A DNA stretch of 64,000 nucleotides. It comes from Lachnospiraceae bacterium. GTDB lineage: Bacteria; Bacillota; Clostridia; Lachnospirales; Lachnospiraceae. The notes beneath the pieces were generated by a model. It was not told the DNA's origin and did not search any database. It worked only from the letters and a program-made list of their open reading frames with translations. Position 1 is the stretch's first letter; each line of letters begins with the position of its first letter. The stretch spans positions 38,192 to 102,191 of the forward strand of contig JAFWZV010000011.1 in the NCBI GenBank assembly GCA_017517305.1, given 5' to 3'. Below, one piece after another: positions 25,511 through 59,274 of the stretch. The translations under genes were made by a program, and so were the position numbers.

Positions 25511-26323
25511 ATGGTAGTACAGCACAACATGCAGGCAATCAACACTAACAGAATGTTAGGACAGAACGTTAAGGCAGTAGCAAAGTCAACAGAGAAGTTA
25601 TCATCAGGTTACAGAGTTAACAGAGCAGCTGATGATGCAGCAGGTCTTTCAATTTCTGAGAAGATGAGAAATCAGATTAGAGGAATCAACCAGGCAGTTA
25701 CTAACGCTGAGGATGGTGTATCACTTATCCAGACTGCAGAAGGTAACTTAAATGAGGTTCACTCAATCCTTCAGAGAATGGGCGAGCTTGCAACTAAGGC
25801 AGCTAACGACGTTAACGCAACTGAGGATCGTAACGCTATCCAGAAGGAAATCGATGAGCTTTCATCAGAGATCGATGAGATCGCTAGAAAGGCTGAGTTC
25901 AACGGAACATCTCTTCTTAACGGTTCATTCACAGGCAAGAAGCTTCAGGTAGGAGCTAAGTCAGGTGAGACTATGGATATCGATATCGAGGAGATTTCAG
26001 CATCTATCCTTTTAGGTGGTGCAGTTGAGGTTGGATCACACACAAGTGCTTCAACAGCTATGACTAACATCAGAAGTGCAATCATTAAGGTTTCTGATTA
26101 CAGAGCAACTCTTGGTGCTAAGCAGAACAGACTTGAGTACACTATCAACAACCTTGAGAACTACTCAGAGAACTTAACATCAGCTGAGTCAACAATCAGA
26201 GATACTGATATGGCATCAGAGATGACTAACTACACTAAGACTAGCATTCTCCAGCAGGCTGCACAGTCAATGCTTGCACAGGCAAATCAGTCTACTCAGG
26301 GTGTACTTTCACTTATTCAGTAA
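25511..26323 (+). CDS. fliC: Flagellin, minimal D0/D1-only type (270 aa)
   Basis: MVVQHN...EKLSSGYRVNRAADDAAGLSISEKMR; RATLGAKQNRLEYTINNL...ESTIRDTDMASEM...QAAQSMLAQANQ. Confidence 0.98.
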   Translation: MVVQHNMQAINTNRMLGQNVKAVAKSTEKLSSGYRVNRAADDAAGLSISEKMRNQIRGINQAVTNAEDGVSLIQTAEGNLNEVHSILQRMGELATKAANDVNATEDRNAIQKEIDELSSEIDEIARKAEFNGTSLLNGSFTGKKLQVGAKSGETMDIDIEEISASILLGGAVEVGSHTSASTAMTNIRSAIIKVSDYRATLGAKQNRLEYTINNLENYSENLTSAESTIRDTDMASEMTNYTKTSILQQAAQSMLAQANQSTQGVLSLIQ

Positions 26324-29549: not shown

Positions 29550-30548
29550 ATGTTAAATGAGAAAGTAATATTAGTTACTGGGGGAACAGGTTCATTTGGA
29601 CATCAGTTTGTGTCATATGTATTAGATAATTATGAACCTAAAAAAATAATTATATATTCAAGAGACGAGTACAAGCAGTTTATAATGCAGAATGAATACA
29701 AGAATCATCCACAGTTTAAAAAGCTTAGGTTTTTTATAGGTGATGTAAGAGATAAAGATAGGTTGTATCGTGCATTTGATGGAGTGGATTACGTTATTCA
29801 TGCTGCAGCACTAAAGCAGGTTCCTGCCTGTGAGTACAATCCTATGGAAGCAGTAAAGACAAATATTAATGGTGCAATGAACATAGTTGATGCAGCCTTA
29901 GATTGTGGAGTAAAACGTGTAGTTGCCTTATCTACAGACAAAGCAGTTAATCCAGTAAATCTATATGGTGGTACAAAGCTGGTGTCAGACAAGCTGTTTA
30001 TATCTGCAAACGCTTACGCAGGAGAAAAGGATGTTAATTTCTCAGTGGTTAGATACGGAAATGTAGCAGGAAGTAGAGGTTCCGTAATACCATTCTTTAG
30101 AAATATTATTGAAAATGGTGGCACGTCCCTTCCGATTACAGATTACCGTATGACAAGATTTTGGATTAGTTTAGAGGAAGGTGTGCAGCTTGTCATCAAG
30201 GCCCTTACTGAAGCTCAGGGTGGAGAAACATTTATATCTAAGATACCTTCATTTAAGATAACTGATTTAGCACAGGCTATGCTTCCAGGTTGCGATATGC
30301 CAGAGGTAGGTATACGTGAGGGTGAGAAGCTTCATGAGGTTATGGTTACAAGAGAGGACTCTATGACTACATATGAATACGATAAGCATTATATAATTTA
30401 CCCGCATTATTCCTGGTGGAATGAGGATAAAATTGCGCCAGGTGGCAAGAAGGTGGAGCATGGGTTTGAGTACAGTTCAGGAACTAACAAAGAATGGCTT
30501 AGCGTGGAAGAATTGAGAAAATTGTTGAAATGTGTTGGAGAGCATTAG
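29550..30548 (+). CDS. pseB: UDP-GlcNAc 4,6-dehydratase (inverting), PseB
   Basis: VTGGTGSFG, YSRDEYKQ, HAAALKQVPACEYNP, ALSTDKAVNPVNLYGGTKL, VRYGNVAGSRGSVIP, GIREGEKLHE. Confidence 0.95.
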   Translation: MLNEKVILVTGGTGSFGHQFVSYVLDNYEPKKIIIYSRDEYKQFIMQNEYKNHPQFKKLRFFIGDVRDKDRLYRAFDGVDYVIHAAALKQVPACEYNPMEAVKTNINGAMNIVDAALDCGVKRVVALSTDKAVNPVNLYGGTKLVSDKLFISANAYAGEKDVNFSVVRYGNVAGSRGSVIPFFRNIIENGGTSLPITDYRMTRFWISLEEGVQLVIKALTEAQGGETFISKIPSFKITDLAQAMLPGCDMPEVGIREGEKLHEVMVTREDSMTTYEYDKHYIIYPHYSWWNEDKIAPGGKKVEHGFEYSSGTNKEWLSVEELRKLLKCVGEH

Positions 30549-30608
30549 GACAATGGGTGCATACAGAGTTTTCCTAAAATAACACAAAAAAGTTAGGGGT
30601 CATGTGTG

Positions 30609-31301
30609 ATGAAAAAAAGATGCTTAGCAGTTATAACTGCAAGAGGTGGAAGCAAAAGAATACCACGAAAAAACATAAAGGACTTTTGTGGAAAGCCTAT
30701 TATGGCATATTCTATAGAAGCAGCATTAGAATCAAATATATTTGATGAAGTTATGGTTTCTACGGATGATGAGGAAATAAAAGAAATTGCATTAAAATAT
30801 GGTGCAAAGGTACCATTTATGCGATCAGAGGAAGCTTCTAATGATATGGCCACAACCCATGAGGTAATATTAGAGGTGCTGAGAGCTTATAAAGAACTGG
30901 GTACGGAATTTGATTATGTATGCTGTATATATCCTACTGCACCGTTTGTAACTAAGGAAAAACTACAAGAGGGTTTTGACAAAATTACAAAGGAAGAAGC
31001 GGACACAGTAATCCCTATAGTTGCATTTTCATTTCCACCTCAGCGTTGCTTTATAATTAAAGATGAAAAGGTATCATTTAAGTGGCCAGAGAATAGATTA
31101 AAGCGCTCACAAGATTTGGAAAAGTTGTATCATGACGCAGGCCAGTTTTATTTCTTGAATGTAGAAAGATTCCAAGAATCAGAGAATATGATTATGGAGA
31201 ATACCGTTCCAATAATTGTAGATGAAATGGAAGTTCAGGATATAGATAATGAAGTTGATTGGAAATTGGCAGAGTTAAAGTATCAGTTGCTTAAGGAATA
31301 G
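30609..31301 (+). CDS. pseF: CMP-pseudaminic acid synthetase PseF
   Basis: AVITARGGSKRIPRKNIK, VMVSTDDEEI, CCIYPTAPF, RSQDLEKLYHDAGQFY, VQDIDNEVDWKLAE. Confidence 0.92.
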   Translation: MKKRCLAVITARGGSKRIPRKNIKDFCGKPIMAYSIEAALESNIFDEVMVSTDDEEIKEIALKYGAKVPFMRSEEASNDMATTHEVILEVLRAYKELGTEFDYVCCIYPTAPFVTKEKLQEGFDKITKEEADTVIPIVAFSFPPQRCFIIKDEKVSFKWPENRLKRSQDLEKLYHDAGQFYFLNVERFQESENMIMENTVPIIVDEMEVQDIDNEVDWKLAELKYQLLKE

Positions 31302-31315
31302 TAGAATGGAGTTCG

Positions 31316-32353
31316 GTGGAGAGCATGAATTTATACAATAAAATCAAAGAAGGAAAAACATATATCATCGCTGAGATGTCTGCAAATCATGCAGGAAGCA
31401 TAGATAGGGCAAAGGAAATTATTCATGCGGCTAAAGAAGCTGGAGCAGATTGTATAAAAATTCAGACATATACAGCTGATACCATAACAATAGATTGCAA
31501 CAATGAATTTTTTTATCTAGATGAAGGAACGTGGAAAGGAGAAAATTTATACCAATTGTATAAAAAAGCATATACACCATGGGAGTGGCAGGCAGAGTTA
31601 AAAGCTGAAGCAGAGAAGATAGGTTTAGAGTTTTTATCCACACCATTTGATAGAACAGCCGTAGATTTTTTGGAGGATTTAGGAGTTGAATTTTATAAGA
31701 TAGCATCATTTGAGTTGGTTGATATTCCACTTATTGAATATGTTGCATCAAAGGGTAAACCTATAATTATGTCTACAGGTATGGGGACTTTAGAAGAGAT
31801 TGAAGAAGCAGTTGCAACTATAAAAAAATATCATAATAACATAATCTTGTTAAAATGTTCAAGTGCATACCCTGCTATTTCAGACGATATGAATTTAAAT
31901 ACAATGGTAGATTTAAAGAACCGGTTTTCTTTGCCAGTTGGTTTATCAGATCATTCAATGGGGGATATTGGTGCGATTGTGGCTGTTTCTATGGGAGCAA
32001 GTGTTATTGAGAAACATTTTTGTATAAGTAGAGAGGTGGAAAATGCAGATTCCACATTTTCTATGGAACCAGATGAATTTGCGAAAATGGTAGAAGATAT
32101 TCGTATGGTAGAAAAAGCCAAGGGAACCATTTATTATGGTTGTACAAAACAAGAACAAAGTAATTATAATTCTAGAAAATCAATTTTTGTTGTGAAAGAT
32201 ATTGAACAGGGAGAAATATTTACGGAGGAAAACATTAGGGTAATAAGACCAGGATATGGTTTACATCCTAGAGAATATAAAAAGGTAATTGGTAAGAAGG
32301 CAGCTACTACTTTGAAAAAAGGCATACCACTAAAAGAAGAGTATATTAGTTAG
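31316..32353 (+). CDS. pseI: Pseudaminic acid synthase PseI
   Basis: IIAEMSANHAG, IKIQTYTADTIT, KIASFELVDIPLI, GLSDHSMG, IEKHF, C-terminal SAF domain VIRPGYGLHP. Confidence 0.93.
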   Translation: MESMNLYNKIKEGKTYIIAEMSANHAGSIDRAKEIIHAAKEAGADCIKIQTYTADTITIDCNNEFFYLDEGTWKGENLYQLYKKAYTPWEWQAELKAEAEKIGLEFLSTPFDRTAVDFLEDLGVEFYKIASFELVDIPLIEYVASKGKPIIMSTGMGTLEEIEEAVATIKKYHNNIILLKCSSAYPAISDDMNLNTMVDLKNRFSLPVGLSDHSMGDIGAIVAVSMGASVIEKHFCISREVENADSTFSMEPDEFAKMVEDIRMVEKAKGTIYYGCTKQEQSNYNSRKSIFVVKDIEQGEIFTEENIRVIRPGYGLHPREYKKVIGKKAATTLKKGIPLKEEYIS

Positions 32354-32366
32354 TTGCAAGGAGGTT

Positions 32367-32945
32367 ATGATGAATACGTTTTATTCAGAAGATGAATTGA
32401 AGGCTTTGGGACTAAAATCATATGGTGAAAATGTATACATTGGAAGACACGTTATATTATATAGCCCTGAGAAATTAGAGATAGGAAATAATGTAAGAAT
32501 AGATGATTTTAGTATATTAAGTGGAAATATAAGGCTTGGAAATTATATTCATATCTCTCATTTTTGTGGCTTGTATGGAGGGGATAAAGGAATAGTAATG
32601 GAGGATTATAGTGGATTATCATCTAAAGTTACTGTTTATGGTGTTTCAGATGATTATTCGGGCAATTCTATGACAAATCCTATGATCCCAGCAGAATACA
32701 AACCATTTAGTACACAAGAAAAAGTAGAAATTAAAAAACATGCAATTGTTGGTGCAGGATCAATTATATTACCTGGAGTAATTGTCGGCGAAGGAAGTAG
32801 CATTGGTTCTATGAGCTTATGCATAAGGGATACTGAGCCGTGGAGTATTAATGTGGGGATACCAGCAAAAAAGATAAAAGAAAGAAGTAAAGAACTGTTG
32901 ATATTAGAAAAAAATTTTAGAGAGAATAGAAATAGTGAATATTAA
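32367..32945 (+). CDS. Hexapeptide-repeat N-acyltransferase, VioB-like
   Basis: ELKALGLKSYGENV, IGNNVRIDDF, DDYSGNSMTNPMIP, VGIPAKKIKERSKELL resemble VioB-type 4-amino-sugar acyltransferases. Confidence 0.75.
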   Translation: MMNTFYSEDELKALGLKSYGENVYIGRHVILYSPEKLEIGNNVRIDDFSILSGNIRLGNYIHISHFCGLYGGDKGIVMEDYSGLSSKVTVYGVSDDYSGNSMTNPMIPAEYKPFSTQEKVEIKKHAIVGAGSIILPGVIVGEGSSIGSMSLCIRDTEPWSINVGIPAKKIKERSKELLILEKNFRENRNSEY

Positions 32946-33327
32946 AATTGGTGATAGTTATTCTGAACAATTTAAGATTACAAAGGAAATGGTGATAAGA
33001 TTTGCAGAGCTGACAGGCGATAAAAATCCTATACACCTTGATCCAGATTATGCAAAGAATACTAGATTTGGTGAATGCATTGTTCCAGGAATACTGATAG
33101 CGGGTTTGCTATCTAAGATAATAGGTATGGATTTTCCTGGTAATGGATCAATTTATTTAGGGCAGGACTTAAATTTTTTAGCTCCTGTATATTTGGATGA
33201 CATAATCGAAATTACATGTGTAGTTGAATTTATTGACGAAAAAGGCCATGTTCTTATAGATAATTTAATTAAGAACAATGAGAATAAGATAGTAATAAGA
33301 GGTAAGTCTAAAGTGAAGGTATTATAA
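32935..33327 (+). CDS. MaoC-family (R)-specific enoyl-CoA hydratase
   Basis: FAELTGDKNPIHLDPDYAKNTRFGECIVPG, FPGNGSIYLGQDLNFLAPVY. Confidence 0.9.
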   Translation: MNIKIGDSYSEQFKITKEMVIRFAELTGDKNPIHLDPDYAKNTRFGECIVPGILIAGLLSKIIGMDFPGNGSIYLGQDLNFLAPVYLDDIIEITCVVEFIDEKGHVLIDNLIKNNENKIVIRGKSKVKVL

Positions 33328-33351
33328 TCATAGAAAATAAGGAGTAGGGTT

Positions 33352-33390
33352 ATGTACATACCATATGGAAAATCGTATAGGGAGTGGTAG
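33352..33390 (+). pseudogene. Ghost 5' end of a pseC copy (MYIPYG...)
   Basis: aaggagt RBS + atg tac ata cca tat gga encodes MYIPYG, identical to the start of intact pseC at 39135, then stops after 12 codons. Confidence 0.65.
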
Positions 33391-33620
33391 TATTTCTTAC
33401 GAATAACAAATGTATGCTTTCATTATATGAATGGTTGTCAGCTCGGGGGAATGTATATTTATTAAGTGATTCACTTACTATGGAACAGGTGTATAAATTA
33501 AAACCTACTTGTGTAGTTAGTTATAATTACATACATACTATTCAAGATGATGTAATAGAGTATATGAATGTAAGAATTACAGTAAATGTCATAACTTTAG
33601 AACTTTGTATAGCTTGTTGA
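33384..33620 (+). pseudogene. Truncated sugar N-formyltransferase fragment
   Basis: VFLTNN...LYEWL...VVSYNYIHTIQDDVI resembles a formyltransferase N-terminus; the catalytic INLHxSxLP motif is absent in all three frames downstream. Confidence 0.6.
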
Positions 33621-33670
33621 TTAAGGATATATATAAGGTTGATAAAAACCTATTGTAGGAGTTGATATAG

Positions 33671-35056
33671 ATGGAAGAAAGTATTTTAAATAAGATAATT
33701 TCAGAATTACATAATATTGATTTTTCGGATGCTTTTATATATGACTCTATAGAAAATAAGGAATATTCTTATTTTGAACTTTTTTCAAGGGCATATTATG
33801 TTGGAAGTAATATTTTGGATGATAGTAATGTTGTCGTAATGGATAATAGCTTTGACTTATTGATACTTTATTTTGCTGCAATGTTTAGAAATTCAACAAT
33901 TATAGCCATAGATCCTGATAAAAATCAAAGAGAAATAGACTTAATTAAGTCATATCATAAAGATAGTAATATCATTAATGAATATACTATTACAAAGTAT
34001 GATTTTATCACAAGAGAACAAATTCTGCATTTATTTAATGGGATAGATTATGATAAAGATTTTTTAATTACTTATACATCGGGTAGTACGGGAAATCCTA
34101 AAGGAGTTGTTCATTCTATAGGAAATTTGTATCATAGTGCATTGAATTTTGGAAAAAAATTAAATTATGGTAGAGAAAACAAGATGTGTCATGTGATGCC
34201 AATGACATATATGGCGGGAATACTAAATTCCATAATCTTACCATTTATAACTGGTGGAAAAATAGTTTTATTTCCAAGATTCAGCGTAAAAAATGTTGCC
34301 CAATTTTGGAACAGAGTAATTAGTTATGAGGTTAATACTTTTTGGCTATCTCCCACAATGCTTCATTTAATTATGAAAATTGATAGAGGACAGAAAGTAA
34401 CAGAATACTTTAAAGATAGAAGAATAACCATATCTGTAGGTACTGCTCCTTTACCAATTGCGCTAAAAAAAGAGTTTGAGGAAAGATATAATGTTACTGT
34501 GTATCAAAGTTATGGCTTATCAGAAACTTTGTTTTTAACTACAGCAAATAATTCATTAAGTGATTTTGAATCGGTTGGGAAGAAACTAGATGATGTTGAA
34601 GTACTTTTATCTGAAGATTGTGAATTGCTCGTTCAGGTTCCATGGATGTTTAAAGGGTATGTTAATGATGATATATCCAATTATTTATACAATGGATACT
34701 ATAAAACAGGTGATTTATGTGCATGTAAAAACAATGAATTATTTATCACTGGAAGAAAGAAAGAATTAATTATAAAGGGTGGAATTAATATTAATCCAAA
34801 GGATATTCAAAATATTATTGAACAAATACCAGATGTTAATGAAGTCTGTGTTGGCTCTGTAGTGCTAATGAACGAGGAAAGAATTGTTTGCTGGTATAGT
34901 GGTGAAGAATTAGCTGAAACGGAAATTAACACTATTATATATGAACAGTTAGGAAAAAATTATAGAATTGATTACTTTAGAAGAGTAAGTTCTTTGCCAA
35001 AAAATTTAAATGGGAAAATTGATAAGTTGAAATTGGTTGAGGAGTTTGAAATATAA
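33671..35056 (+). CDS. Adenylate-forming enzyme (acyl-CoA/acyl-ACP ligase)
   Basis: TYTSGSTGNPKGV, YGLSET, YKTGDL, GRKKELIIKGGINI, LPKNLNGKIDK. Confidence 0.9.
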   Translation: MEESILNKIISELHNIDFSDAFIYDSIENKEYSYFELFSRAYYVGSNILDDSNVVVMDNSFDLLILYFAAMFRNSTIIAIDPDKNQREIDLIKSYHKDSNIINEYTITKYDFITREQILHLFNGIDYDKDFLITYTSGSTGNPKGVVHSIGNLYHSALNFGKKLNYGRENKMCHVMPMTYMAGILNSIILPFITGGKIVLFPRFSVKNVAQFWNRVISYEVNTFWLSPTMLHLIMKIDRGQKVTEYFKDRRITISVGTAPLPIALKKEFEERYNVTVYQSYGLSETLFLTTANNSLSDFESVGKKLDDVEVLLSEDCELLVQVPWMFKGYVNDDISNYLYNGYYKTGDLCACKNNELFITGRKKELIIKGGININPKDIQNIIEQIPDVNEVCVGSVVLMNEERIVCWYSGEELAETEINTIIYEQLGKNYRIDYFRRVSSLPKNLNGKIDKLKLVEEFEI

Positions 35057-35057
35057 G

Positions 35058-35672
35058 ATGATTATTAAACTAGATCATATATCCTATTCAGGTAAATATA
35101 GTGATGCAAAGTCGATTTTTAATAAGTTCATAAAATATGATATTGATTTTGAAGAGAAGGATTTATTGAATATTGAATGTAAAAATGAGTTGTTTAATGA
35201 GACACAAATCAAACATGACTTGTATATGATGAAGTGTAATAATGAACTTCCGATTGAAATAACCCTTTACGCAAACTGCACCAATGATGAACCTATGCTT
35301 GATGTACGTGATAAAAAAATATTTATAAAGTCAAACGATCCCAGTGCTACAGAAAAATTATTTTTTGATGTTGGATTCAAAAGAAAGGATGATTACGTAT
35401 ATTTAAAGCCTATAATGGATAATACAGAAGTGAAGATATATGTTGAGCCATCATATTCTACATATAATAGAAAATTAGATAATTTTGGTTACTCATCATT
35501 GGCATTTTGGAGTAGCAATATTGATAAAGACAGAGAAAAATATCATAAATTAGGATATAAAGTAACAGATATAGAAAAACTGTTAGTTAATGGTAAAATA
35601 TTAGATATATTTTTTTTGAATGGAAATAATGGGGAGATTCTAGAATTTATAGGAGTGGACAAAAATAGATGA
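35058..35672 (+). CDS. VOC (glyoxalase/epimerase) fold protein
   Basis: IKLDHIS N-terminus; SLAFWSSNIDKDREKYHKLGY...FFLNGNNGEILEFI C-terminal VOC pattern. Confidence 0.6.
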   Translation: MIIKLDHISYSGKYSDAKSIFNKFIKYDIDFEEKDLLNIECKNELFNETQIKHDLYMMKCNNELPIEITLYANCTNDEPMLDVRDKKIFIKSNDPSATEKLFFDVGFKRKDDYVYLKPIMDNTEVKIYVEPSYSTYNRKLDNFGYSSLAFWSSNIDKDREKYHKLGYKVTDIEKLLVNGKILDIFFLNGNNGEILEFIGVDKNR

Positions 35673-36325
35673 AGATAATTGATTTATCACTAGAATTAGA
35701 TAACGATTGTATGACTTGTGGAACACCATGGCATGAACAGGTTAATATACGTGCTTTAGGGAAATTATCACAAGTGGGAAGGAATACATCTACAATAAAA
35801 CTAGGGAGTCATTCTGGTACTCATATTGACGCACCGTTACATTTTTTTGATAATACATATGGTGTTGATAAATTGAATTTAAATGTTTTGTGTGGACAAG
35901 TTCAAGTAGTGAATTTTACAAGGTTCCAACAAGGGACATGTGTGGGCATAGAAGATATAAAAAAAATAGATATATCTGAAAGAATGATATTTAGATTCGA
36001 TTGGCACAAGAAGTGGAAGTCAAAAGATTATTATAGTGACTTCCCGTATTTTACAATAGATGCTGCCAAGTATCTTGTTGAAAATGGGCTAAAACTAATA
36101 GCTTTGGATACGCCATCGCCTGACTCGGGAAGTAACATAAATGAACTCGGAGAGAATGATTCTCCTGTTCATAAATTATTGTTGAGTAATGACGTAATAA
36201 TTGCGGAATATCTTACTAACACAGATAAGCTGGATGAACGGAGTAACATGCAAATTGTCGCATTGCCTTTAAAAATTGAAGGTGTTGATGGATCACCAGC
36301 AAGAATTATTGTGATGGAGGAATAG
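35669..36325 (+). CDS. Cyclase-family (kynurenine formamidase-like) metal-dependent hydrolase
   Basis: IIDLSL, SHSGTHIDAPLHF, IALDTPSPD, VHKLLL...IAEYLTN, LPLKIEGVDGSPARI. Confidence 0.9.
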   Translation: MKIIDLSLELDNDCMTCGTPWHEQVNIRALGKLSQVGRNTSTIKLGSHSGTHIDAPLHFFDNTYGVDKLNLNVLCGQVQVVNFTRFQQGTCVGIEDIKKIDISERMIFRFDWHKKWKSKDYYSDFPYFTIDAAKYLVENGLKLIALDTPSPDSGSNINELGENDSPVHKLLLSNDVIIAEYLTNTDKLDERSNMQIVALPLKIEGVDGSPARIIVMEE

Positions 36326-36327
36326 TA

Positions 36328-36567
36328 ATGAATATGAGAGATTGGATAGTAAAATGGTTTGTAGACCATACAGGAAAAACAGAGAGTGAGATAGTAAGAG
36401 ACGCAAAGGAAAACTATTTTGATTTGGGTTATATTGATTCATTTGAGTTTATAGAGTTGATTAGTGATCTTGAAGAGGCTGGAATTCAATTGAATAATGA
36501 CAGCTTTGAAGATAGAAGATTTGCTACAATCGAAGGTTTGATTGAAATCCTAAGCGATATAAATTAG
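36328..36567 (+). CDS. Acyl carrier protein
   Basis: 79 aa, acidic, YFDLGYIDSFEFIELISDLE phosphopantetheine motif. Confidence 0.88.
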   Translation: MNMRDWIVKWFVDHTGKTESEIVRDAKENYFDLGYIDSFEFIELISDLEEAGIQLNNDSFEDRRFATIEGLIEILSDIN

Positions 36568-36582
36568 AAGTGGGGGGATTAT

Positions 36583-37272
36583 ATGTTAAATGAACAAACA
36601 AGCTATTGGACAGCACAATATTTGCGAACAGAAAAAATGGCATATCCAGCTGAGTATGTAATTAGGATGTTTAAAGGAAAATTTCCTAAGTTAGATTTAA
36701 AAAAAGAGCTAGGAGGTTATGATGATAAAAGTATACTTGATATAGGATGTGGAGATGGACGACATTTGTGTTTCTTCAAAGAACAGGGATTTAAAGAGAT
36801 ATGTGGAACGGAAATTTCAGAAGAAATAGTAAAAAAATTAAAAAAAGATTTGGAGAATATAGGAGAATTCGATATAAGAGTAGGCGTAAATAATAATCTT
36901 GGATTTGAAGATGATAAGTTTGATTGTTTGCTGTCTTGGAATGTGTGTTATTATTTAGATGACAAAATGGATTTTGTGTCACACATAAATGAATATGCAA
37001 GAGTTCTAAAAAAAGATGGTATATTGGTATTTTCCATACCATGTAAGGATTGCTTTGTTTATAAAGATGGAATTGAAAAAGATGGATTTATGGAGATAAG
37101 AAATGATTATTTCAAAATTAGAAATGGCTCCATTCAAAAAATATTTCAAAATGAGGAGGATATTGAGAAGACGTTTGGAGAAAAGTTTAAGGATTTTGTA
37201 TTTGGAAAGATTGACTGTGACTGCTTTGGTTTAGATTATAAATGGTATATAGGATATTGTAGAAAAATATAA
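36583..37272 (+). CDS. Class I SAM-dependent methyltransferase
   Basis: ILDIGCGDGRH, CGTEIS, FDCLLSWNVCYY, ARVLKKDGILVFS. Confidence 0.9.
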   Translation: MLNEQTSYWTAQYLRTEKMAYPAEYVIRMFKGKFPKLDLKKELGGYDDKSILDIGCGDGRHLCFFKEQGFKEICGTEISEEIVKKLKKDLENIGEFDIRVGVNNNLGFEDDKFDCLLSWNVCYYLDDKMDFVSHINEYARVLKKDGILVFSIPCKDCFVYKDGIEKDGFMEIRNDYFKIRNGSIQKIFQNEEDIEKTFGEKFKDFVFGKIDCDCFGLDYKWYIGYCRKI

Positions 37273-37284
37273 TTGGAGTGTAGT

Positions 37285-38052
37285 ATGGGGTATACATATA
37301 ACGATATAGTTGACGCTTTAAAAAACTTAAATATAAATGAAGGTGATAGTATTTTTGTGCACAGTAATCTCGGTTTTTTTGGAAAGATGGAAAATTGTTC
37401 AAATGCAGATGAATTGTGCGAAAACTTTTTGAATGCAATAGTTGAAGTTATAGGTGAAGAAGGTACATTGGTGTTACCAGCTTTTTCATATTCGTTTTGT
37501 AATAATGAGATTTTTGATGTAAATAATACGTGTACAAAATGTGGAATATTTTCTGAGTATCTTAGAAAAAAGGAAGGTTCTGTAAGGTCACAGGATCCTA
37601 ATTTTTCAATTGTGGCATATGGAAAGGAAAAAATATATTATACAGAAAATCCAACGAATGAATCCTTTGGGAAAGGGAGCTTTTGGGAAAGATTCTTAAA
37701 TCGTAAGGGGAAAATCGTATGTATGAATTTTGATTCAGGGTCAACCTTCGTTCATTATGTTGAAAGGCAAAATAATGTTCCATATAGGTATAATAAAGCA
37801 TTTAATGGGATTATTAAGGATAGGGATAAAGAACGAAAAGATTATTTTGTTCACTATGTATATGATAAAGATGTTTTGGAGGATGCACCAAGTTTTAATT
37901 ATCTAGATGCGCTGTGCAAGAAAAATGGGATTTGTAAAAGTGTTTGCATTGGACGTGGTATTATAAATGCAATGGAGTCAAAAGTATATTATGATTTTAT
38001 TTGTGAAATGTTAAAGAAGGAACCGCGTTTTTTGACGAGGGGGCGTGTGTAA
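37285..38052 (+). CDS. AAC(3)-fold (Antibiotic_NAT) N-acyltransferase
   Basis: LNINEGDSIFVHSNL, GTLVLPAFSYSF, GIFSEYLRK...RSQDPNFS, TFVHYVER...VPYRYNK; ATG 37285 behind ggagtg. Confidence 0.88.
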   Translation: MGYTYNDIVDALKNLNINEGDSIFVHSNLGFFGKMENCSNADELCENFLNAIVEVIGEEGTLVLPAFSYSFCNNEIFDVNNTCTKCGIFSEYLRKKEGSVRSQDPNFSIVAYGKEKIYYTENPTNESFGKGSFWERFLNRKGKIVCMNFDSGSTFVHYVERQNNVPYRYNKAFNGIIKDRDKERKDYFVHYVYDKDVLEDAPSFNYLDALCKKNGICKSVCIGRGIINAMESKVYYDFICEMLKKEPRFLTRGRV

Positions 38053-39098
38053 TGAGTAAGATAATGGATGTAACCCTTAGAGACGGAAGTTATGCTGTTA
38101 ATTTTCAATTTTCTACTGCTGACGTAAAAATTATAGGTAAAGAATTAGATGAATTAGGATATCCGTATATCGAAATTGGACATGGTATGGGAATGGGTGC
38201 TAGTTCTCATAAAAACGGAATTGCACTTAACACAGATTGGGAGTATTTAGAAGCGGCAAAGGATAGCATAAAACAAGCTAAAGTAGGTATGTTTTGTATA
38301 CCTGGTATTGCAAAATTAGAACATATTAGAAAAGCAAAAGAATTAGGGTTAGATTTTGTTAGAATAGGTACAAATGTTGATAGAGTTCAAGAGTCTAAAG
38401 AGTATATTCAAGAAGCAAAAAAATATGGAATGGAAGTTATGGCAAATTATATGAAATCCTATGCGATGAATCCGAAGGATTTTGTAAAACAGGTTCTGTT
38501 ATCTGAACAATATGGTGCGGATGTTGTTTATTTGGTAGATTCTGCAGGTAGTATGTTGCCGAATGATATTGTGGAGTATTATAAAGCCATAAGAGAAAAA
38601 TCACAAATTCGATTAGGGTTTCATGGTCATAATAATCTAGGTTTGGCATTATCAAATAGTTTATTGGCAGAAGAACTCGGGTTCGACTTAATTGATACGT
38701 CGTTGCAGGGATTAGGAAGAAGCTCAGGAAATGCATCTACAGAGTTATTCACAATATGTAGTATGAAAAAGGGGGCTAAAATTAATATAAATTACAAAAG
38801 ATTATTAATGTTTAGTAATAAAATAATTGCACCTTATATAAAGAATAAAGGTATAAATTCAATTGATACTATTTGTGGAGTTGCTGGATTTCATACAAGC
38901 TATCTGCAGGTGATTCATAAAGTTGCAGCATTGTATAGTGTTGACCCATTAGAACTAATTGAAGAGTATAGTAAGCTGGATCAGTTGAATATGAATGAAG
39001 ATAAATTAAGGGATATAGCGAAAGGACTAAGTGAGAATATAGATAGTTTTATTAATGTTAATTTTGTTGATTATTTTGGTCACGAGCAAATAAATTAA
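38052..39098 (+). CDS. HMGL-like (DRE-TIM) aldolase, 4-hydroxy-2-oxovalerate aldolase-like
   Basis: IMDVTLRDGSY, IEIGHGMGMGAS, VYLVDSAGSM, GFHGHNNLGLALSNSL, GLGRSSGNA. Confidence 0.85.
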   Translation: MSKIMDVTLRDGSYAVNFQFSTADVKIIGKELDELGYPYIEIGHGMGMGASSHKNGIALNTDWEYLEAAKDSIKQAKVGMFCIPGIAKLEHIRKAKELGLDFVRIGTNVDRVQESKEYIQEAKKYGMEVMANYMKSYAMNPKDFVKQVLLSEQYGADVVYLVDSAGSMLPNDIVEYYKAIREKSQIRLGFHGHNNLGLALSNSLLAEELGFDLIDTSLQGLGRSSGNASTELFTICSMKKGAKININYKRLLMFSNKIIAPYIKNKGINSIDTICGVAGFHTSYLQVIHKVAALYSVDPLELIEEYSKLDQLNMNEDKLRDIAKGLSENIDSFINVNFVDYFGHEQIN

Positions 39099-39134
39099 AC
39101 AATTTATAGGCATGTAAAGGAGTCTTAGATTATT

Positions 39135-40256
39135 ATGTATATACCATACGGACGACAAGCAATAGACAATAATGACATACAAGCGGTAATAGATGTTCTT
39201 AAATCAGACTATCTTACAACAGGCCCTAAGATAACTGAGTTTGAGAAGAGAGTAGCTGATTATGTAGGAGCAAAATATGCAGTTGCAGTTAATAGTGGAA
39301 CAGCAGCCCTTCATATAGCTTGCTTGGCAGCGGGCATAAAAGAAGGTGATGAGGTAATTACTTCTCCTATAACCTTTGCAGCTTCTTCGAACTGCGTGCT
39401 TTACTGTGGTGGAACTCCTATTTTTGCTGATATCGATGCTGAAACATATAATATAGCTCCGGAAGAAATTGAAAAAAAACTTACTGATAAAACAAAGGCT
39501 GTAATTCCAGTTCACTATACTGGACAACCCTGTGATATGGATAGAATATGGGCTATAGCTAAGAAACATAATCTAACAGTGATAGAGGATGCGGCTCATG
39601 CTCTTGGTGCTTCTTATAAGGGTAAGATGATTGGTAGTCAGTCAGATATGACATGCTTTAGCTTCCATCCGGTCAAACCTATTACTACTGGCGAGGGTGG
39701 TATGGTTGTGACAAATGATGAAGAGTTATATAAGAGACTGGTGCTGTTTAGAAGCCATGGAATAACCAGAGATGAAGAACTTATGACAGAGAATCAAGGT
39801 GGATGGTATTATCAGCAGTTAGAGTTAGGATATAACTATCGAATTACAGATATATCCTGTGCCTTGGGCTGTAGCCAGATGGATAAGCTGGATTTTTTCC
39901 TGGAGAAAAGAAGAACTATAGCTAGAAGATATGATCAGGCTTTTGCTGGAATAGAAGGTATTATAACACCGAAGCAAATTGAAGAATGTGAGAGTGGCTG
40001 GCATCTATATATGATACAGGTAGATAATCGTAAAGAGGTATTCGATAAGTTGCGAGAGGCTGGAATAGGGGTAAATGTGCATTATATACCTGTATATCAG
40101 CATCCATATTATCAGAGGAATGGTTATGATGAGTGTTGCTGTGAGAATGCTGAAAAGTTTTATGCAAGAGCTATAAGCTTACCCATATTCCCTGGGTTGA
40201 CTGAGGAACAACAGCAGTACGTTATAGATAAGATTGTAGAAATAATGACAGTATGA
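39135..40256 (+). CDS. pseC: UDP-4-amino-4,6-dideoxy-beta-L-AltNAc transaminase PseC
   Basis: IPYGRQAI, LTTGPKI, VNSGTAALHIA, IEDAAHALG, FSFHPVKPITTGEGG, LGYNYRITD. Confidence 0.93.
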   Translation: MYIPYGRQAIDNNDIQAVIDVLKSDYLTTGPKITEFEKRVADYVGAKYAVAVNSGTAALHIACLAAGIKEGDEVITSPITFAASSNCVLYCGGTPIFADIDAETYNIAPEEIEKKLTDKTKAVIPVHYTGQPCDMDRIWAIAKKHNLTVIEDAAHALGASYKGKMIGSQSDMTCFSFHPVKPITTGEGGMVVTNDEELYKRLVLFRSHGITRDEELMTENQGGWYYQQLELGYNYRITDISCALGCSQMDKLDFFLEKRRTIARRYDQAFAGIEGIITPKQIEECESGWHLYMIQVDNRKEVFDKLREAGIGVNVHYIPVYQHPYYQRNGYDECCCENAEKFYARAISLPIFPGLTEEQQQYVIDKIVEIMTV

Positions 40257-40266
40257 TGAGGTTGAT

Positions 40267-41301
40267 ATGTTTTATATCCGTGCAGATGCAAATGAAATAA
40301 TTGGAACAGGTCATGTTATGCGTTGCCTTTCTATTGCAGAAGAGTTGCGTAGACAAAGAGAAAAAGTGATATTTCTATTTGCTGATGATAGAACTAAGAA
40401 TTTAATTGAAGAGAAAAACTTCGAGGGTATTTGCTTGAATTCTGTATGGAATGATTTGGATAAAGAAACAAGTCTTATGAAGCAACTTATAGAAAAATAT
40501 GACATAGAGAAACTTTTAATTGATTCTTATTATGTAACAGAGCATTATTTAGAGGAATTAAATAAAGTCACAAATGTAATATACATAGATGATATGTTGG
40601 CATTTCCTTACCCTGTTCAAGTTCTTATTAATTATAATATATTTGCCACTGAGGAAAAATATCAGCAGTTATATGGGGACAAGTATAGCGATACACAGTT
40701 TCTATTAGGTTGCAAATATGCACCATTGCGACAAGAGTTTCAAGATGTTAAGCGAGTGGCAAATGACAAGATAAATAGTATATTAATCTCATCAGGAGGA
40801 ACAGATACCTATAATATAACAGGAAATTTTTTATGTGCGTTAAGAACACAAAAATGGTTTGAAGAGACAGATATTCATGTGATTATAGGAAGGTTTAATA
40901 AAAATAAAGAGACTTTAGAAAAAGAGTGGTATAACTGCAAGAATGTAAAGCTTCATTATAATATTCATAATATGTCGGATTATATGAAATCATGTGATAT
41001 AGCTGTTTCCGCGGGAGGAGTAACCACATACGAGTTGTGTGCTTGTGGAATACCTACAATTATGTATACATTAGCAGATAATCAGCTTGAGATTGCTGAT
41101 ATAGCATCTGATATGGGACTGGTTCATTATGCTGGAGATATTAGAGAGCATATGGAGGATTGTTTGGAGATAATAATATCAAGAATAGATGTCTTACGAC
41201 AAGATGTAGAATTAAGAAGAGATATTAGTATCAAGATGCAACAGGTTGTTGATGGTAAAGGATGTTTAAGATTAGTAAAACATATGTGTGTAGAGACATG
41301 A
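40267..41301 (+). CDS. pseG: UDP-2,4-diacylamino-2,4,6-trideoxy-beta-L-altropyranose hydrolase PseG
   Basis: IRADANEIIGTGHVMRCLSIA, LLIDSYYV, YAPLRQEF, GGTD, AVSAGGVTTYELC, ADNQ; no fused GNAT (PseH) domain. Confidence 0.92.
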   Translation: MFYIRADANEIIGTGHVMRCLSIAEELRRQREKVIFLFADDRTKNLIEEKNFEGICLNSVWNDLDKETSLMKQLIEKYDIEKLLIDSYYVTEHYLEELNKVTNVIYIDDMLAFPYPVQVLINYNIFATEEKYQQLYGDKYSDTQFLLGCKYAPLRQEFQDVKRVANDKINSILISSGGTDTYNITGNFLCALRTQKWFEETDIHVIIGRFNKNKETLEKEWYNCKNVKLHYNIHNMSDYMKSCDIAVSAGGVTTYELCACGIPTIMYTLADNQLEIADIASDMGLVHYAGDIREHMEDCLEIIISRIDVLRQDVELRRDISIKMQQVVDGKGCLRLVKHMCVET

Positions 41302-41313
41302 GAGGATAGAATT

Positions 41314-42621
41314 ATGAGCAAGACAGGACAAGATATATATAGCTTTACGGCATCAATATTCCCCATATGCAGAAGTTTGACTGGAAATGGCGTAAGAGAA
41401 ACATTAGCAATGATAAATGAATATATATCCGAAACAGGCTTGAACTTAAATATTTATGAAATTCCTACAGGAACGCAAGTATTTGATTGGACTATACCAA
41501 AGGAGTGGGAAATTAGAGCTGGATATATAGAGGACGAAAATGGTGACAAAATAATAGATTTTTTAGATAACAATCTTCACATTTTAGGTTACTCAACACC
41601 AATTGATAGATGGGTAGATTTAGAAGAATTAAAGAAAAATATTTACACACAGCCTGAGCAACCAGATGTAATTCCATACGTGACTTCATATTATCGAGAG
41701 AGATATGGCTTTTGTATGAGTGAAATTCAAAAGAATTCTCTACGTCCAGGTAAGTATCATATGTATATAGATAGTGAACTAAGAGATGGTAGTCTTACAT
41801 ATGCAGACTTAGTGATTCAAGGCAAGAGCGATCAAGAGATAATGATTACTAGTTATATATGTCATCCTTCCATGGCAAATAATGAGTGTTCTGGTCCAGC
41901 GGTGTTGGCAGAGCTTATCAAGTATGTTAATGCCATGGAAAATAGGAGATATACTTATAGATTTGTTTTGAATCCTGAAACTATTGGTGCTATCACGTAT
42001 TTGAGTAAGAAGTATCAGCATTTGAAAGAAAAACTGGTTGCTGGAGTAGTGTTATCATGTGTGGGTGATGATAGAGCATACTCTATAATAGAATCAAGAT
42101 ATGCGGATACTATAGCAGACAAAGGATTAAAGAATATTTTAAGCCATCATGGAAATGTATATAACTATTCTTACCTAAGTCGTGGTTCAGATGAAAGACA
42201 GTATAATGCTCCTGGAATTGATCTTCCAGTAGTAGGATTTTGTAGAAGTAAGTATGGTGAGTATAATGAATATCACACATCTGCTGATAATATGGACCTA
42301 GTATCACCTGAGGGTTTTCAGGGAAGCTATGATGTGATGACTGAGTGGATTCGGGCTATGGAGATAAACGACTATTATAAGGTTACAGTATTGTGTGAAC
42401 CACAGCTAGGTAAAAGAGGACTATATCCAACCATAAGTCAAAAAGGTAGCTATAATGAGGTGAAAGCCATGACCGACTTTATAGCCTATGCGGATGGAAA
42501 AAATGATGTGTTTGATATAAGCAATATAATAGGAATTCCTGTAAAGGATATTATTCCGATTATAGAAAAGCTATTTGAAGCTGGCTTGGTTGAGAAGAGA
42601 TTGGTGAATTTTAAAGACTAA
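41314..42621 (+). CDS. DUF4910 (M28 peptidase-like) protein
   Basis: FPICRSLTGNGVRETL, VFDWTIPKEWEI, YICHPSMANNECSGP, GSDERQYNAPG, YHTSADN, EPQLGKRGLYPT, AYADGKND. Confidence 0.88.
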   Translation: MSKTGQDIYSFTASIFPICRSLTGNGVRETLAMINEYISETGLNLNIYEIPTGTQVFDWTIPKEWEIRAGYIEDENGDKIIDFLDNNLHILGYSTPIDRWVDLEELKKNIYTQPEQPDVIPYVTSYYRERYGFCMSEIQKNSLRPGKYHMYIDSELRDGSLTYADLVIQGKSDQEIMITSYICHPSMANNECSGPAVLAELIKYVNAMENRRYTYRFVLNPETIGAITYLSKKYQHLKEKLVAGVVLSCVGDDRAYSIIESRYADTIADKGLKNILSHHGNVYNYSYLSRGSDERQYNAPGIDLPVVGFCRSKYGEYNEYHTSADNMDLVSPEGFQGSYDVMTEWIRAMEINDYYKVTVLCEPQLGKRGLYPTISQKGSYNEVKAMTDFIAYADGKNDVFDISNIIGIPVKDIIPIIEKLFEAGLVEKRLVNFKD

Positions 42622-42665: not shown

Positions 42666-43886
42666 ATGCGAAGTTATGCTGAAGAATTAAGACAATTATG
42701 GTTTTTGGATTGGGATATATCACAGGAAGACAAAATTTACTTTCCATCAGGGTGGTTCAACGGTTTAATAGAGGCAGATTTAAAAACAGGTGAAGGAAAG
42801 ATTATATCTAGTTTTCCAGGAGAAATAGGAGTAGTAGGCGATTTAATATATGATGTGTTGAGAGTTGAAAATAAACTGTATTTTTGTCCAAGAAGCACAA
42901 ATAAATTGTATGTATATGATTTTGAAAAGAAAAAAATGCTAACATATGATTTTCCTAAGAATGAAGCTTATTGGGAAGAACGTGAGTGTAAGTTTGGCAA
43001 GTTAGTGTATCGTGATAGATATGTATTTATTATGCCAGTAAACTATAATCGGATTTTGCGTTTTGATCTTGATAAAGAAGAGTTTCTGGTGATTGATAAT
43101 TGGTTTAAAAAATTCAAAGAACTGTCAGGATATATACCTAAAAAAGAAAAGTGGAAAAGTTTTTTTCAAAACCATATAACATACAATGACAAAATTTTAT
43201 GGCAAGTGATGAATACAGAGCACTTTTGTTGCTTTGATATGTTGACCAACGATACTTCGTATGTGAAATTTGATGGAGGACTCATTGTAAGTGTAGAAAA
43301 ATCAGATGTTGATACTATATTTGTATGCGAAGACGGAAGGTGTTGGCGTTATAATGTTTTTAAGAGTGATTTCGAGGTAATAACCACTATTGCAATGGAC
43401 TTGAGCGATATTTTTAATTTATTTGTAAGAGTTGACCATACATGTTATTTTGCTTCAATATCAAATAATGAATTAATATCATACGATATTATAACAAAGA
43501 AAAAAGAAATAATAAAGATAAAAACTGATGGTAATTATTATGATAATTCTATCGGTGAAAAATGGAATAGACAATTATTAGCAATTAAGAAAAAAGATAA
43601 ATGCATTTATATGCAGAATAAACATAATGAAATAGTTATATTTAACACCTTGACCAAAGAGTATAAGACGAAACGTTTATTGTTAGATTCATATGAAAGC
43701 ATAAATTGGGAGATGAATCTAGAAGTGGATGAATTTAGTAAAAAATACTCCTTTTTCCCATATACATCGTCTAATCTGGAAATTCTAATTTATAGATTGA
43801 AAATGATGAAAAAAATGGGTAAAAATGAGGAATTTGATAGTTATGGTGGAGCAATTTACAAAAAAATATTTGAAGTAGGTAGGTAG
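42666..43886 (+). CDS. Hypothetical beta-propeller-like protein
   Basis: Repeated beta-strand units (IYFPSG.FNGLIEADL, LYFCPRSTNKLYVYD, VFIMPVNYNRILRFD). Confidence 0.55.
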   Translation: MRSYAEELRQLWFLDWDISQEDKIYFPSGWFNGLIEADLKTGEGKIISSFPGEIGVVGDLIYDVLRVENKLYFCPRSTNKLYVYDFEKKKMLTYDFPKNEAYWEERECKFGKLVYRDRYVFIMPVNYNRILRFDLDKEEFLVIDNWFKKFKELSGYIPKKEKWKSFFQNHITYNDKILWQVMNTEHFCCFDMLTNDTSYVKFDGGLIVSVEKSDVDTIFVCEDGRCWRYNVFKSDFEVITTIAMDLSDIFNLFVRVDHTCYFASISNNELISYDIITKKKEIIKIKTDGNYYDNSIGEKWNRQLLAIKKKDKCIYMQNKHNEIVIFNTLTKEYKTKRLLLDSYESINWEMNLEVDEFSKKYSFFPYTSSNLEILIYRLKMMKKMGKNEEFDSYGGAIYKKIFEVGR

Positions 43887-44863: not shown

Positions 44864-44867
44864 ATAT

Positions 44868-45353
44868 ATGAAAATTGCTATAATCATATTATTATCTTTT
44901 GTTTTGGGGATGTTTTTTATGGATTATATTATCTCCAAGCATAATGATAGCAGCAAGAAAGAAGATTTAATTAAAAAAATATCTTTGTATTATCATACCT
45001 TTAATTTGTGGATGGATATAAAACAACAAGGAGTTGATGTTGCAGGATACATGAAAAAACAGGGTTATGAAAGAGTTGCTATATATGGTATGAAAGAGTT
45101 GGGAGAACGTTTATATGTGGAATTAACCCAAGCTGAAATAGATGTAATCTGTGTGATTGATGGTAATAAGAATGTGTTAGGAGATTTCAAGTTATTATCA
45201 CCCAATGATGATATTCCAGAGATAGATGTTCTTATCGTTACAGCAGAATATTATTTTGATGAAATTAATAATAAGATGGAAAAGAAAGTAAATTGTCCTA
45301 TTCTAAAATTATCTGAATTATTGTGTGATGCGTCTGGAATAGCATGGAGATAG
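44868..45353 (+). CDS. Hypothetical protein: N-terminal TM helix + stand-alone Rossmann-like module
   Basis: MKIAIIILLSFVLGMFF; RVAIYGMKELGERL...VIDGN...DVLIVT. Confidence 0.6.
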   Translation: MKIAIIILLSFVLGMFFMDYIISKHNDSSKKEDLIKKISLYYHTFNLWMDIKQQGVDVAGYMKKQGYERVAIYGMKELGERLYVELTQAEIDVICVIDGNKNVLGDFKLLSPNDDIPEIDVLIVTAEYYFDEINNKMEKKVNCPILKLSELLCDASGIAWR

Positions 45354-53112: not shown

Positions 53113-53113
53113 G

Positions 53114-55156: not shown

Positions 55157-55197
55157 TATTGCATAGAGAAGATTTGTAGTTACGAGGGGGTATACAT

Positions 55198-55860: not shown

Positions 55861-55869
55861 GAGAACTAT

Positions 55870-56568: not shown

Positions 56569-56596
56569 AATGGATTTACAGAGAGGGTGTGTTGAG

Positions 56597-57673: not shown

Positions 57674-57682
57674 GAAAAGGAT

Positions 57683-59227: not shown

Positions 59228-59274
59228 AGGATGAAATAATGGAACCAAGCGCTATGCTATGATGAGGTTTTACT

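Follow-up and report, generated by a model that had tools for sequence, protein, structure and literature searches.

A pseudaminic acid operon with two candidate N-acyl diversification modules in the flagellar locus of a gut Lachnospiraceae bacterium

How does a flagellar pseudaminic acid (Pse) operon complete its sugar when the usual GNAT-type N-acyltransferase PseH cannot be found beside the other pathway genes, and what is a cassette built around an acyl carrier protein (ACP) doing in its middle? The question is raised by a 64,000-nucleotide stretch of a Lachnospiraceae bacterium (GenBank assembly GCA_017517305.1, contig JAFWZV010000011.1, positions 38,192 to 102,191), referred to here as the window; related loci carry L-labels (L001, L055, L104 and so on). 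A preliminary description of positions 33671-42621, made from the sequence alone, had proposed a PseH-less pathway in which seven cassette genes between pseI and pseC, together with a DUF4910 gene after pseG, assemble a small acid on an ACP and transfer it to an amine of Pse.

Gene identities were assigned with Pfam and NCBIfam, and NCBIfam equivalog cut-offs were applied to the Pse genes. All five of these exceeded their cut-offs: PseB, the inverting UDP-GlcNAc 4,6-dehydratase (29550..30548; TIGR03589, 545 bits against 408), PseF, the CMP-pseudaminic acid synthetase (30606..31301; TIGR03584, 306 bits against 206), PseI, the pseudaminic acid synthase (31316..32353; TIGR03586, 465 bits against 340), the aminotransferase PseC (39135..40256; TIGR03588, 533 bits against 424) and the nucleotidase PseG (40267..41301; TIGR03590, 230 bits against 154). 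These, the other genes of the operon and the flagellin gene are on the + strand. Distances between the co-directional genes from 29550 to 42621 range from -11 to +57 nucleotides and they are therefore taken as one operon, in agreement with the tight coupling described before. A 579-kb metagenome contig carries an identical copy, in which an independent gene call gave the same genes. The genes that had been named were all recovered at their positions. The inventory was nonetheless incomplete, because its start at 33671 excluded three open reading frames (ORFs) between pseI and the adenylase gene: a left-handed beta-helix (LbH) acyltransferase, a MaoC-type hydratase and a gene remnant. The presumed target of glycosylation is a flagellin of 270 residues (25511..26323; Flagellin_N, E = 2e-44; Flagellin_C, E = 8e-26).

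We propose that the CMP-pseudaminic acid needed for flagellin comes from this operon and that two separate modules within it diversify the N-acyl groups, and we give this reading a probability of about 0.5. In the first module (32367-33327), action of the hydratase on crotonyl-CoA or 3-methylcrotonyl-CoA would yield a 3-hydroxyacyl-CoA, and the LbH enzyme would place the 3-hydroxyacyl group on the 4-amino group of UDP-4-amino-4,6-dideoxy-L-AltNAc, which corresponds to N7 of Pse. In the second (33671-39098 and 41314-42621), an adenylase would load a small carboxylic acid onto the dedicated ACP, an AAC(3)-fold enzyme would pass the ACP-bound acyl group on to an amine of the sugar, most likely N5, and the DUF4910 protein would help to remove or exchange the original N5 acetyl group. 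An aldolase and a cyclase-family hydrolase, usually with a VOC protein, would make or tailor this acid, a 4-hydroxy-2-oxo acid or a derivative of one, starting from pyruvate and an aldehyde, and a methyltransferase would add an optional methyl group. The substrates, the order of steps, the acylated position and the chemistry of the DUF4910, VOC and cyclase proteins are inferred. The fullest version of the model is a flagellin Pse without either of its usual acetyl groups, with an aldolase- and ACP-dependent hydroxy or oxo acid on N5, an AntD-type 3-hydroxyacyl group on N7 and the DUF4910-AAC(3) pair swapping the N5 acetyl; this we regard as tentative and rather doubtful.

The absence of a GNAT PseH from the window, either free or fused to PseG, was upheld. 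No GNAT domain was present in any ORF of at least 110 residues across the 64 kb, and tblastn with three PseH-like GNATs of relatives gave a best E-value of 0.17 against the window. PseG is 344 residues long and unfused, and PseI has no fused GNAT, unlike the 501-residue PseI-GNAT fusion of L001. What follows pseI instead is the LbH gene (32367..32945), whose product matches the N-acyltransferase AntD (E = 9e-56, 191 bits). Residues 2-190 align with AntD residues 18-205 at about 50% identity, including the C-terminal helix. The solved structures 3vbi and 3vbn are those of AntD from Bacillus cereus (PMC6031040). AntD transfers a 3-hydroxyacyl group from CoA to the 4-amino group of a nucleotide-linked 4-amino-4,6-dideoxyhexose, as reported by Kubiak and Holden (2012, cited in PMC6031040). 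This is the type of reaction that PseH performs, with a different donor.

The hydratase gene (32935..33327; PF01575, E = 2e-17) overlaps the LbH gene by 11 nucleotides and is translationally coupled to it. Its single-hot-dog product resembles the (R)-specific enoyl-CoA hydratase PhaJ (1iq6, E = 8e-19) and HTD2 (3ir3, E = 6e-24), and the hydratase-2 motif GDKNPIH is intact. A scan of species-representative genomes for the LbH family found it in the PseH slot of three other Lachnospiraceae pse loci, all of them lacking a GNAT. The gene order is PseF-LbH-MaoC-PseI-PseG in L105, with the same LbH/MaoC pair as in the window, and PseF-LbH-PseI-PseG in L106. In L107 (PseI-LbH-SDR-PseG), a FabG-like short-chain dehydrogenase/reductase (L107:6611-7330) occupies the position of MaoC. 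A hydratase in the window and L105 and a ketoreductase in L107 both point to a 3-hydroxyacyl-CoA donor.

The third overlooked ORF is the 78-codon N-terminal remnant of a formyltransferase-like gene, a pseudogene (33384..33620). It aligns only to residues 7-49 of a 176-residue formyltransferase-like protein (L055:18744-19274, E = 1e-5), and the catalytic NLHxSxLPxxRG region is gone. An intact gene of this kind lies between PseI/GNAT and PseG in L055, L007, L009 and L020, the order in L055 being PseI-GNAT-Fmt-like-PseG. The simplest reading of these gene orders is that the AntD/hydratase pair displaced a GNAT PseH and that the neighbouring formyltransferase-like gene then decayed; the decayed gene is consistent with such a replacement event. 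The LbH enzyme is thus, judged by sequence and position, a probable functional replacement of PseH. Since AntD-like genes fill the PseH slot in the window and in three other loci, the pathway is not functionally PseH-less, and the idea that the cassette compensates for a missing PseH does not hold.

The pair resembles AntA and AntD of the anthrose pathway of Bacillus anthracis and B. cereus, in which AntD is likewise accompanied by a small enoyl-CoA hydratase; we take AntA to be that hydratase. Unlike the anthrose genes, which serve a dTDP-glucose pathway, the pair in the window stands in a UDP-sugar Pse pathway at the position of the GNAT PseH. The acyl group on N7 is predicted from this analogy to be 3-hydroxybutyryl or 3-hydroxy-3-methylbutyryl, and the donor may be 3-hydroxybutyryl rather than the 3-hydroxy-3-methylbutyryl of anthrose. 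In the literature searched, no description was found of AntD with a hydratase or ketoreductase replacing PseH in Lachnospiraceae.

The second module opens with a stand-alone adenylating enzyme of the ANL family (33671..35056, 461 residues; PF00501, E = 7e-39), whose nearest solved structures are MenE enzymes (E = 4e-28). Its gene lies directly upstream of a VOC or cyclase gene in 17 related loci, and the enzyme is presumed to be the loader of the ACP. The ACP itself (36328..36567, 79 residues; PP-binding, E = 8e-6) keeps the phosphopantetheine serine of its YIDSF motif in 20 of 20 sequences, and its gene is always directly upstream of the AAC(3)-like gene or of the methyltransferase gene. A distant version of the cassette, L104, carries its own phosphopantetheinyl transferase (PPTase), which together with the invariant serine supports a true carrier-protein mechanism and the role that had been assigned to the ACP. 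The class I S-adenosylmethionine (SAM) methyltransferase follows (36583..37272; Methyltransf_11, E = 8e-17). The next protein (37285..38052; PF02522, E = 4e-32) has the AAC(3) (Antibiotic_NAT) fold of N-acyltransferases and scores 72 bits against a cut-off of 270 for NCBIfam AAC_3, so that it shares the fold and is no resistance gene. Its nearest solved structures are YokD and FrbF, and it is presumed to be an acyl-ACP:aminosugar transferase. A TTG start for this gene was considered and set aside, the start called in the independent annotation being the ATG at 37285. Adenylase and ACP are both free-standing, and condensation and thioesterase domains are absent from the cassette, so the earlier comparison with nonribosomal peptide synthetases is an analogy only.

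Three further enzymes accompany this core. The aldolase (38052..39098) is a DmpG-like class II pyruvate aldolase (NF006049, 291 bits against a cut-off of 229; DmpG 1nvm, E = 2e-52), and falls just under the cut-off of the stricter TIGR03217 (268 bits against 286). As in DmpG and BphI, the HMGL TIM barrel, the communication domain and the Asp and His-x-His metal ligands are present, and the RDG and FHGH motifs are kept. Unlike DmpG and BphI, the enzyme stands in a biosynthetic context and has its catalytic dyad swapped: Tyr takes the place of His21 (RDGSY) and His that of Tyr291 (GFHTSY), in all 17 cassette members and in L104 (18/18). Domain scans of the 64-kb window also found no DmpF partner or other acylating aldehyde dehydrogenase. 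On these features the aldolase is classed as a distinct DmpG subfamily, whose reaction need not be canonical. A stand-alone biosynthetic homologue of DmpG/BphI has a precedent in RhiG of rhizocticin. A role of the aldolase as a Pse lyase or synthase acting on the sugar was considered and rejected, since the enzyme is lost together with the cyclase and VOC proteins while the acyl-transfer core persists.

The cyclase-family protein (35669..36325; PF04199, E = 4e-24) is a KynB-like metal-dependent hydrolase that matches kynurenine formamidase 4cz1 with E = 6e-19. The binuclear-metal motif GSHxxTHxDAPxHF (GSHSGTHIDAPLHF; family HxGTHxDxPxH) is kept in 16 of 16 members. Against the arylformamidase model TIGR03035 it scores 88 bits with a cut-off of 223, which makes it a family member and no equivalog. 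In the case of the VOC-superfamily metalloenzyme (35058..35672, 204 residues), the glyoxalase signal is faint and a profile search of the PDB gave weak glyoxalase matches only; the superfamily was established by a fold search. The AlphaFold model (pLDDT 94.7) has three beta-alpha-beta3 modules and matches glyoxalase I, GLOD4, methylmalonyl-CoA epimerase and hydroxymandelate synthase with a Foldseek probability of 1.0, with no assignment to a subfamily. Residues D6, H7, H53 and E67 show no variation and E196 almost none, and a metal site is deduced from H7, E67 and E196. The family comprises 36 clusters among 5.8 billion proteins, none of them named. Oxygen-dependent chemistry of the hydroxyphenylpyruvate dioxygenase or hydroxymandelate synthase type was judged unlikely in strict anaerobes.

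As had been reported, no FkbH-type glyceroyl-ACP loader was detected in the window. The only HAD protein of the window, of 684 residues (53102-55156), was considered for this role and rejected because it matches generic HAD-IA models.

Is this set of genes more than a chance neighbourhood? Alignment of AAC(3)-like homologues recovered 19 loci from different species, including the cultured Anaerosporobacter mobilis DSM 15930 (L013), which has the complete cassette; in all, the cassette is conserved in about 17 species. Most share the order DUF4910-AMP-VOC-cyclase-ACP-AAC3-aldolase, where AMP stands for the adenylase, with 41-71% identity in tblastn searches with the window proteins. The recurrence of the same order in so many species argues against chance juxtaposition. 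A neighbourhood search of the kind that the preliminary description had suggested placed pse genes within 10 kb of the cassette in 12-13 of the 19 loci. Together with the DUF4910 loci described below, this confirms the adenylase, ACP, AAC(3)-like and DUF4910 genes as a conserved unit tied to pse genes. A GT52 (sialyltransferase-like) gene adjoins the cassette in seven of the related loci.

There is variation around this unit. The methyltransferase gene is present only in the window, L006, L014, L020 and L104, and the VOC gene is missing from L009 and L022. VOC, cyclase and aldolase are lost jointly from L014 and L021, which keep DUF4910-AMP-ACP-AAC3, whereas aldolase and cyclase occur together in 17 of the 17 trio-bearing loci and in L104. 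The adenylase and transferase of L014 and L021 have mean identities of 45% and 48-50% to the other members, as these have among themselves; because they are no outliers, both loci are regarded as loss variants and not as a different system. Variation of aldolase, cyclase and VOC as a block is as expected for a sub-module that supplies or tailors the acid, which fits the acid-building role first suggested for them. The distant L104 cassette (L104:7024-15655), reached via the VOC family, has the order PPTase-aldolase-AMP-VOC-methyltransferase-aminotransferase-cyclase-ACP-AAC3-DUF4910 and adjoins a NeuB-type synthase, CMP-transferases and capsule-export genes. Its extra class I/II aminotransferase, between methyltransferase and cyclase, hints that a 2-oxo acid is aminated there. 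In L001 (the PseI-GNAT fusion), L008, L009 and L013, a GNAT after or fused to PseI occurs alongside the cassette. This is important to note because it means that the cassette is no stand-in for PseH.

The DUF4910 protein of the window (41314..42621; PF16254, E = 1e-93) belongs to the Cj1295/CA_C2195 family. It contains all three Pfam domains (DUF4910, DUF2172 and HTH_47) and matches PDB 3k9t with E = 1e-103. The motifs CHPSMAN[ND]E and EYHTSAD, with the zinc histidines, are invariant in 15 sequences, and the third zinc-ligand position, as read from the sequence alignment, is N or D. An alignment scan found the family in at least 599 species of Bacteria and Archaea. Among the best 80 loci, an AAC(3)-like gene is present in 51 and lies within 400 nucleotides in 40, across phyla. 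A NeuB/PseI-like synthase occurs in 28 of the 80, an AMP-binding gene in 20 and a MaoC gene in 13; the cassette aldolase occurs in only two, both of which duplicate loci found earlier. At L049:9173-11940 an AAC(3)-like domain is fused to DUF4910 in one protein of 699 residues, followed by a 79-residue ACP and a MaoC dehydratase. AAC3-DUF4910-MaoC arrangements like this one were also seen in about 12 other Lachnospiraceae loci. The combination of DUF4910 and AAC(3)-like genes is an ancient pair, sometimes fused.

The link of this family to di-O-methylglyceroyl Pse in Campylobacter jejuni is found in the literature, as had been stated. Cj1295 is required for Pse5(2,3-di-O-methylglyceroyl)7Ac, in which the unusual acyl group is on N5, and cleavage of the acetamido group at N5 was proposed as its role (PMC3068675). 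The neighbourhood of CA_C2195 in Clostridium acetobutylicum contains a glyoxalase, Maf, an aminosugar N-acetyltransferase, an ACP and an N-acetyltransferase-HAD fusion, and the authors of the CA_C2195 structure proposed transacylation or an unusual amidase activity (PMC4000134).

The systems of C. jejuni NCTC 11168 (Cj1295) and C. acetobutylicum (CA_C2195-2199) resemble the window in several respects. The DUF4910 protein has the same length and three-domain architecture, and an AAC(3)-type aminosugar N-acyltransferase, a dedicated ACP and a methyltransferase are found among flagellar Pse or other nonulosonic acid genes. The comparison of neighbourhoods relies on the published C. acetobutylicum table. 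In the C. jejuni product, N5 of Pse bears a small methylated hydroxy acid (PMC3068675, PMC4000134). The window differs in having the adenylase, DmpG-like aldolase, KynB-like hydrolase and VOC protein instead of an FkbH/HAD loader, and in that its DUF4910 gene does not adjoin the AAC(3)-like gene. The choice of N5 as the target site of the cassette is based on two analogies, the C. jejuni acyl group and the structural relative FrbF, which we take to act on a CMP-linked amine.

Other surface glycans offer looser parallels. In Vibrio cholerae O1, rfbKLMNO are responsible for tetronate N-acylation of perosamine. That system resembles the window in that a dedicated ACP and an AMP-forming ligase provide a small hydroxy acid with which a 4-amino sugar of a surface glycan is N-acylated; it differs in the type of transferase and in the tailoring enzymes, and its sugar is no nonulosonic acid. 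The flagellin glycan of Treponema denticola, a Pse-type sugar, is described as a 2-methoxy-4,5,6-trihydroxy-hexanoyl nonulosonic acid (PMC13439194). We read its acyl group as what an aldol reaction between pyruvate and glyceraldehyde, with reduction and O-methylation, might give, and it may serve as a chemical precedent. The window cassette has no reductase. The AAC(3)-like matches from Spirochaetota (L002, L003) are in dTDP-sugar contexts.

The association of DUF4910, AAC(3)-like protein and ACP with flagellar nonulosonic acid genes was published in 2010 and 2014 (PMC3068675, PMC4000134). This core association is already known, and what is new is the acid-supply block and the AntD-type replacement of PseH. 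The literature searched gave no description of AAC(3)-like enzymes acting with an ACP on nonulosonic acids, nor of a free adenylase, a swapped-dyad aldolase, a KynB-like hydrolase and a narrow VOC family in place of FkbH.

Several observations weigh against the two-module model as drawn above and have to be set beside the alternatives. The first group concerns the origin of the acid. Because the canonical His21/Tyr291 arrangement is lost, the reaction of the aldolase may depart from DmpG-type aldol chemistry, and the Lachnospiraceae cassettes have no reductase or aminotransferase for a 2-oxo group. L014 and L021 do without the trio and their adenylases form no distinct clade, so that the trio may act in tailoring the acid and not in its synthesis. 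A cassette without the trio has the methyltransferase too, at 71% identity, which weakens a scheme of aldol reaction followed by methylation; for this reason the target of the methyltransferase is probably not a group created by the aldolase. These points lead to a first alternative, in which the acyl group is a common pool metabolite (lactate, pyruvate, 3-hydroxybutyrate or an amino acid) and the trio tailors the bound acyl group or salvages by-products. The nesting of the trio-less loci within the family (45% against 45% mean identity), the methyltransferase common to cassettes with and without the trio, the dispensable VOC gene and the presence of thioester-acting epimerases and glyoxalase I among the VOC relatives would all suit it. 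Against it stand the constant pairing of aldolase and cyclase and the possibility that trio genes are located elsewhere in the genomes of L014 and L021. DmpG-type enzymes, moreover, act to our knowledge on free 2-oxo acids. We consider this alternative unlikely.

The second group concerns the DUF4910 protein and the amine that is acylated. In CA_C2195 one zinc site is kept and the catalytic Asp and Glu of M28 peptidases are missing (PMC4000134); an amidase role would therefore need unusual chemistry. The family also occurs in CDP-sugar and C-methyltransferase loci with neither an AAC(3)-like gene nor an obvious N-acetyl group (PMC4000134, supplement), which calls for caution about a simple de-N-acetylase. 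The L049 fusion is surrounded by housekeeping genes (PlsY, trigger-factor-like, Sir2, SSB, S18) and by no sugar genes, and in the window the DUF4910 and AAC(3)-like genes are separated by the aldolase, pseC and pseG genes. A second alternative is that the cassette serves N-acylation in general, lies beside the pse genes by location only and acts on another amine, in the flagellar glycan or a different surface molecule. Besides L049 and the CDP-sugar loci, this would be in line with the five of 19 cassette loci that have no pse gene within 10 kb and with the many further glycosyltransferases, LicD proteins and CDP-ribitol-type branch of the window's island. The window cassette, however, sits inside the pse operon between pseI and pseC, the frequencies of pse genes near the cassette and of NeuB/PseI-like synthases near DUF4910 argue for nonulosonic acids, and the phenotype of the Cj1295 mutant concerns specifically a Pse derivative. 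A different target is accordingly quite unlikely.

The last alternative, that the PseH step is truly lacking and that the AAC(3)-like enzyme, with acyl-ACP as its donor, acts directly on the UDP-sugar at the free 4-amino group (the future N7) with no need for de-N-acetylation, has in its favour the missing GNAT, the N-acyltransferase fold and the position of the cassette between pseI and pseC, but is very unlikely given the AntD homologue and hydratase in the PseH slot, the replacement of GNAT by the same family in cassette-free loci, the cassettes that coexist with a GNAT PseH and the C. jejuni precedent for N5 rather than N7. One point that also counts against the two-module model belongs here, namely that the search for pseH covered the 64-kb window and that a pseH gene may lie elsewhere in the genome. 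With these reservations, a Pse operon with two separate N-acylation modules remains our preferred reading.

The preliminary description had placed the locus in a gut Firmicute as a flagellin Pse island, and the surroundings agree with this. The identical stretch was seen in gut metagenomes of at least three studies, whereas a search for RNA runs returned none, and the close relatives are all metagenome-assembled genomes of Lachnospiraceae, Acetatifactor or other Clostridia, the nearest being from Lachnospiraceae. The flagellin gene is accompanied by + strand genes for FliW, FlaG, FliD, FliS and FlgN-like and FlgK/FlgL-like proteins, after which comes a long glycosylation island. The G+C content falls to about 0.29-0.34 at 32-50 kb compared with about 0.39 in the flanks, which fits a horizontally exchanged, hypervariable glycosylation region within a flagellar locus. 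No Maf-type or other recognisable flagellin nonulosonic acid transferase was seen in the window.

Further genes of the island extend on both sides of the operon. An ORF of 136 residues with a weakly PqqD-like C-terminus (28813-29223) lies between the first LicD gene and pseB and is also kept in the identical metagenome contig. Three coupled ORFs (406, 325 and 161 residues; 42666-45353) follow the DUF4910 gene and have no family match, apart from a faint LIC12162-family match of the 325-residue product; a 715-residue ORF (48203-50350) also has no family match. The N-domain (51753-52565) and the C-domain (52543-53112) of a GT4 glycosyltransferase are encoded by separate ORFs that overlap in different frames; a frameshift, a pseudogene or an error of assembly could account for this. 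At 26396-28729 and 53102-61572 there are genes for two large proteins of the LicD family, for a ribulose-phosphate epimerase, for an IspD/TarI-like cytidylyltransferase and for a zinc alcohol dehydrogenase, along with that of the 684-residue HAD protein, a set which suggests a CDP-ribitol or similar phospho-alditol decoration of the same glycan.

What follows from this for the organism and for the enzyme families? Among the antigens of the gut microbiota, Lachnospiraceae flagellin is a dominant one, and both the assembly of the filament and its recognition by the immune system are affected by the sugars that coat it. Nonulosonic acids with new N-acyl groups turn up regularly. The locus predicts a doubly re-acylated pseudaminic acid, so this flagellin probably bears an undescribed sugar variant. 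Surveys of Pse pathways that score the GNAT PseH would miss such loci, since an unrelated LbH acyltransferase can take its place. The swapped-dyad aldolase subfamily and the 36-cluster VOC family represent enzymes without a known reaction. The compact and conserved gene set provides a means of asking whether AAC(3)-fold enzymes accept acyl groups from a carrier protein and what DUF4910 does, a question since 2010 and 2014. If the model is true, the exchange of the N5 acetyl group, for which a machinery has long been sought, would be the work of the conserved DUF4910-AAC(3) pair.

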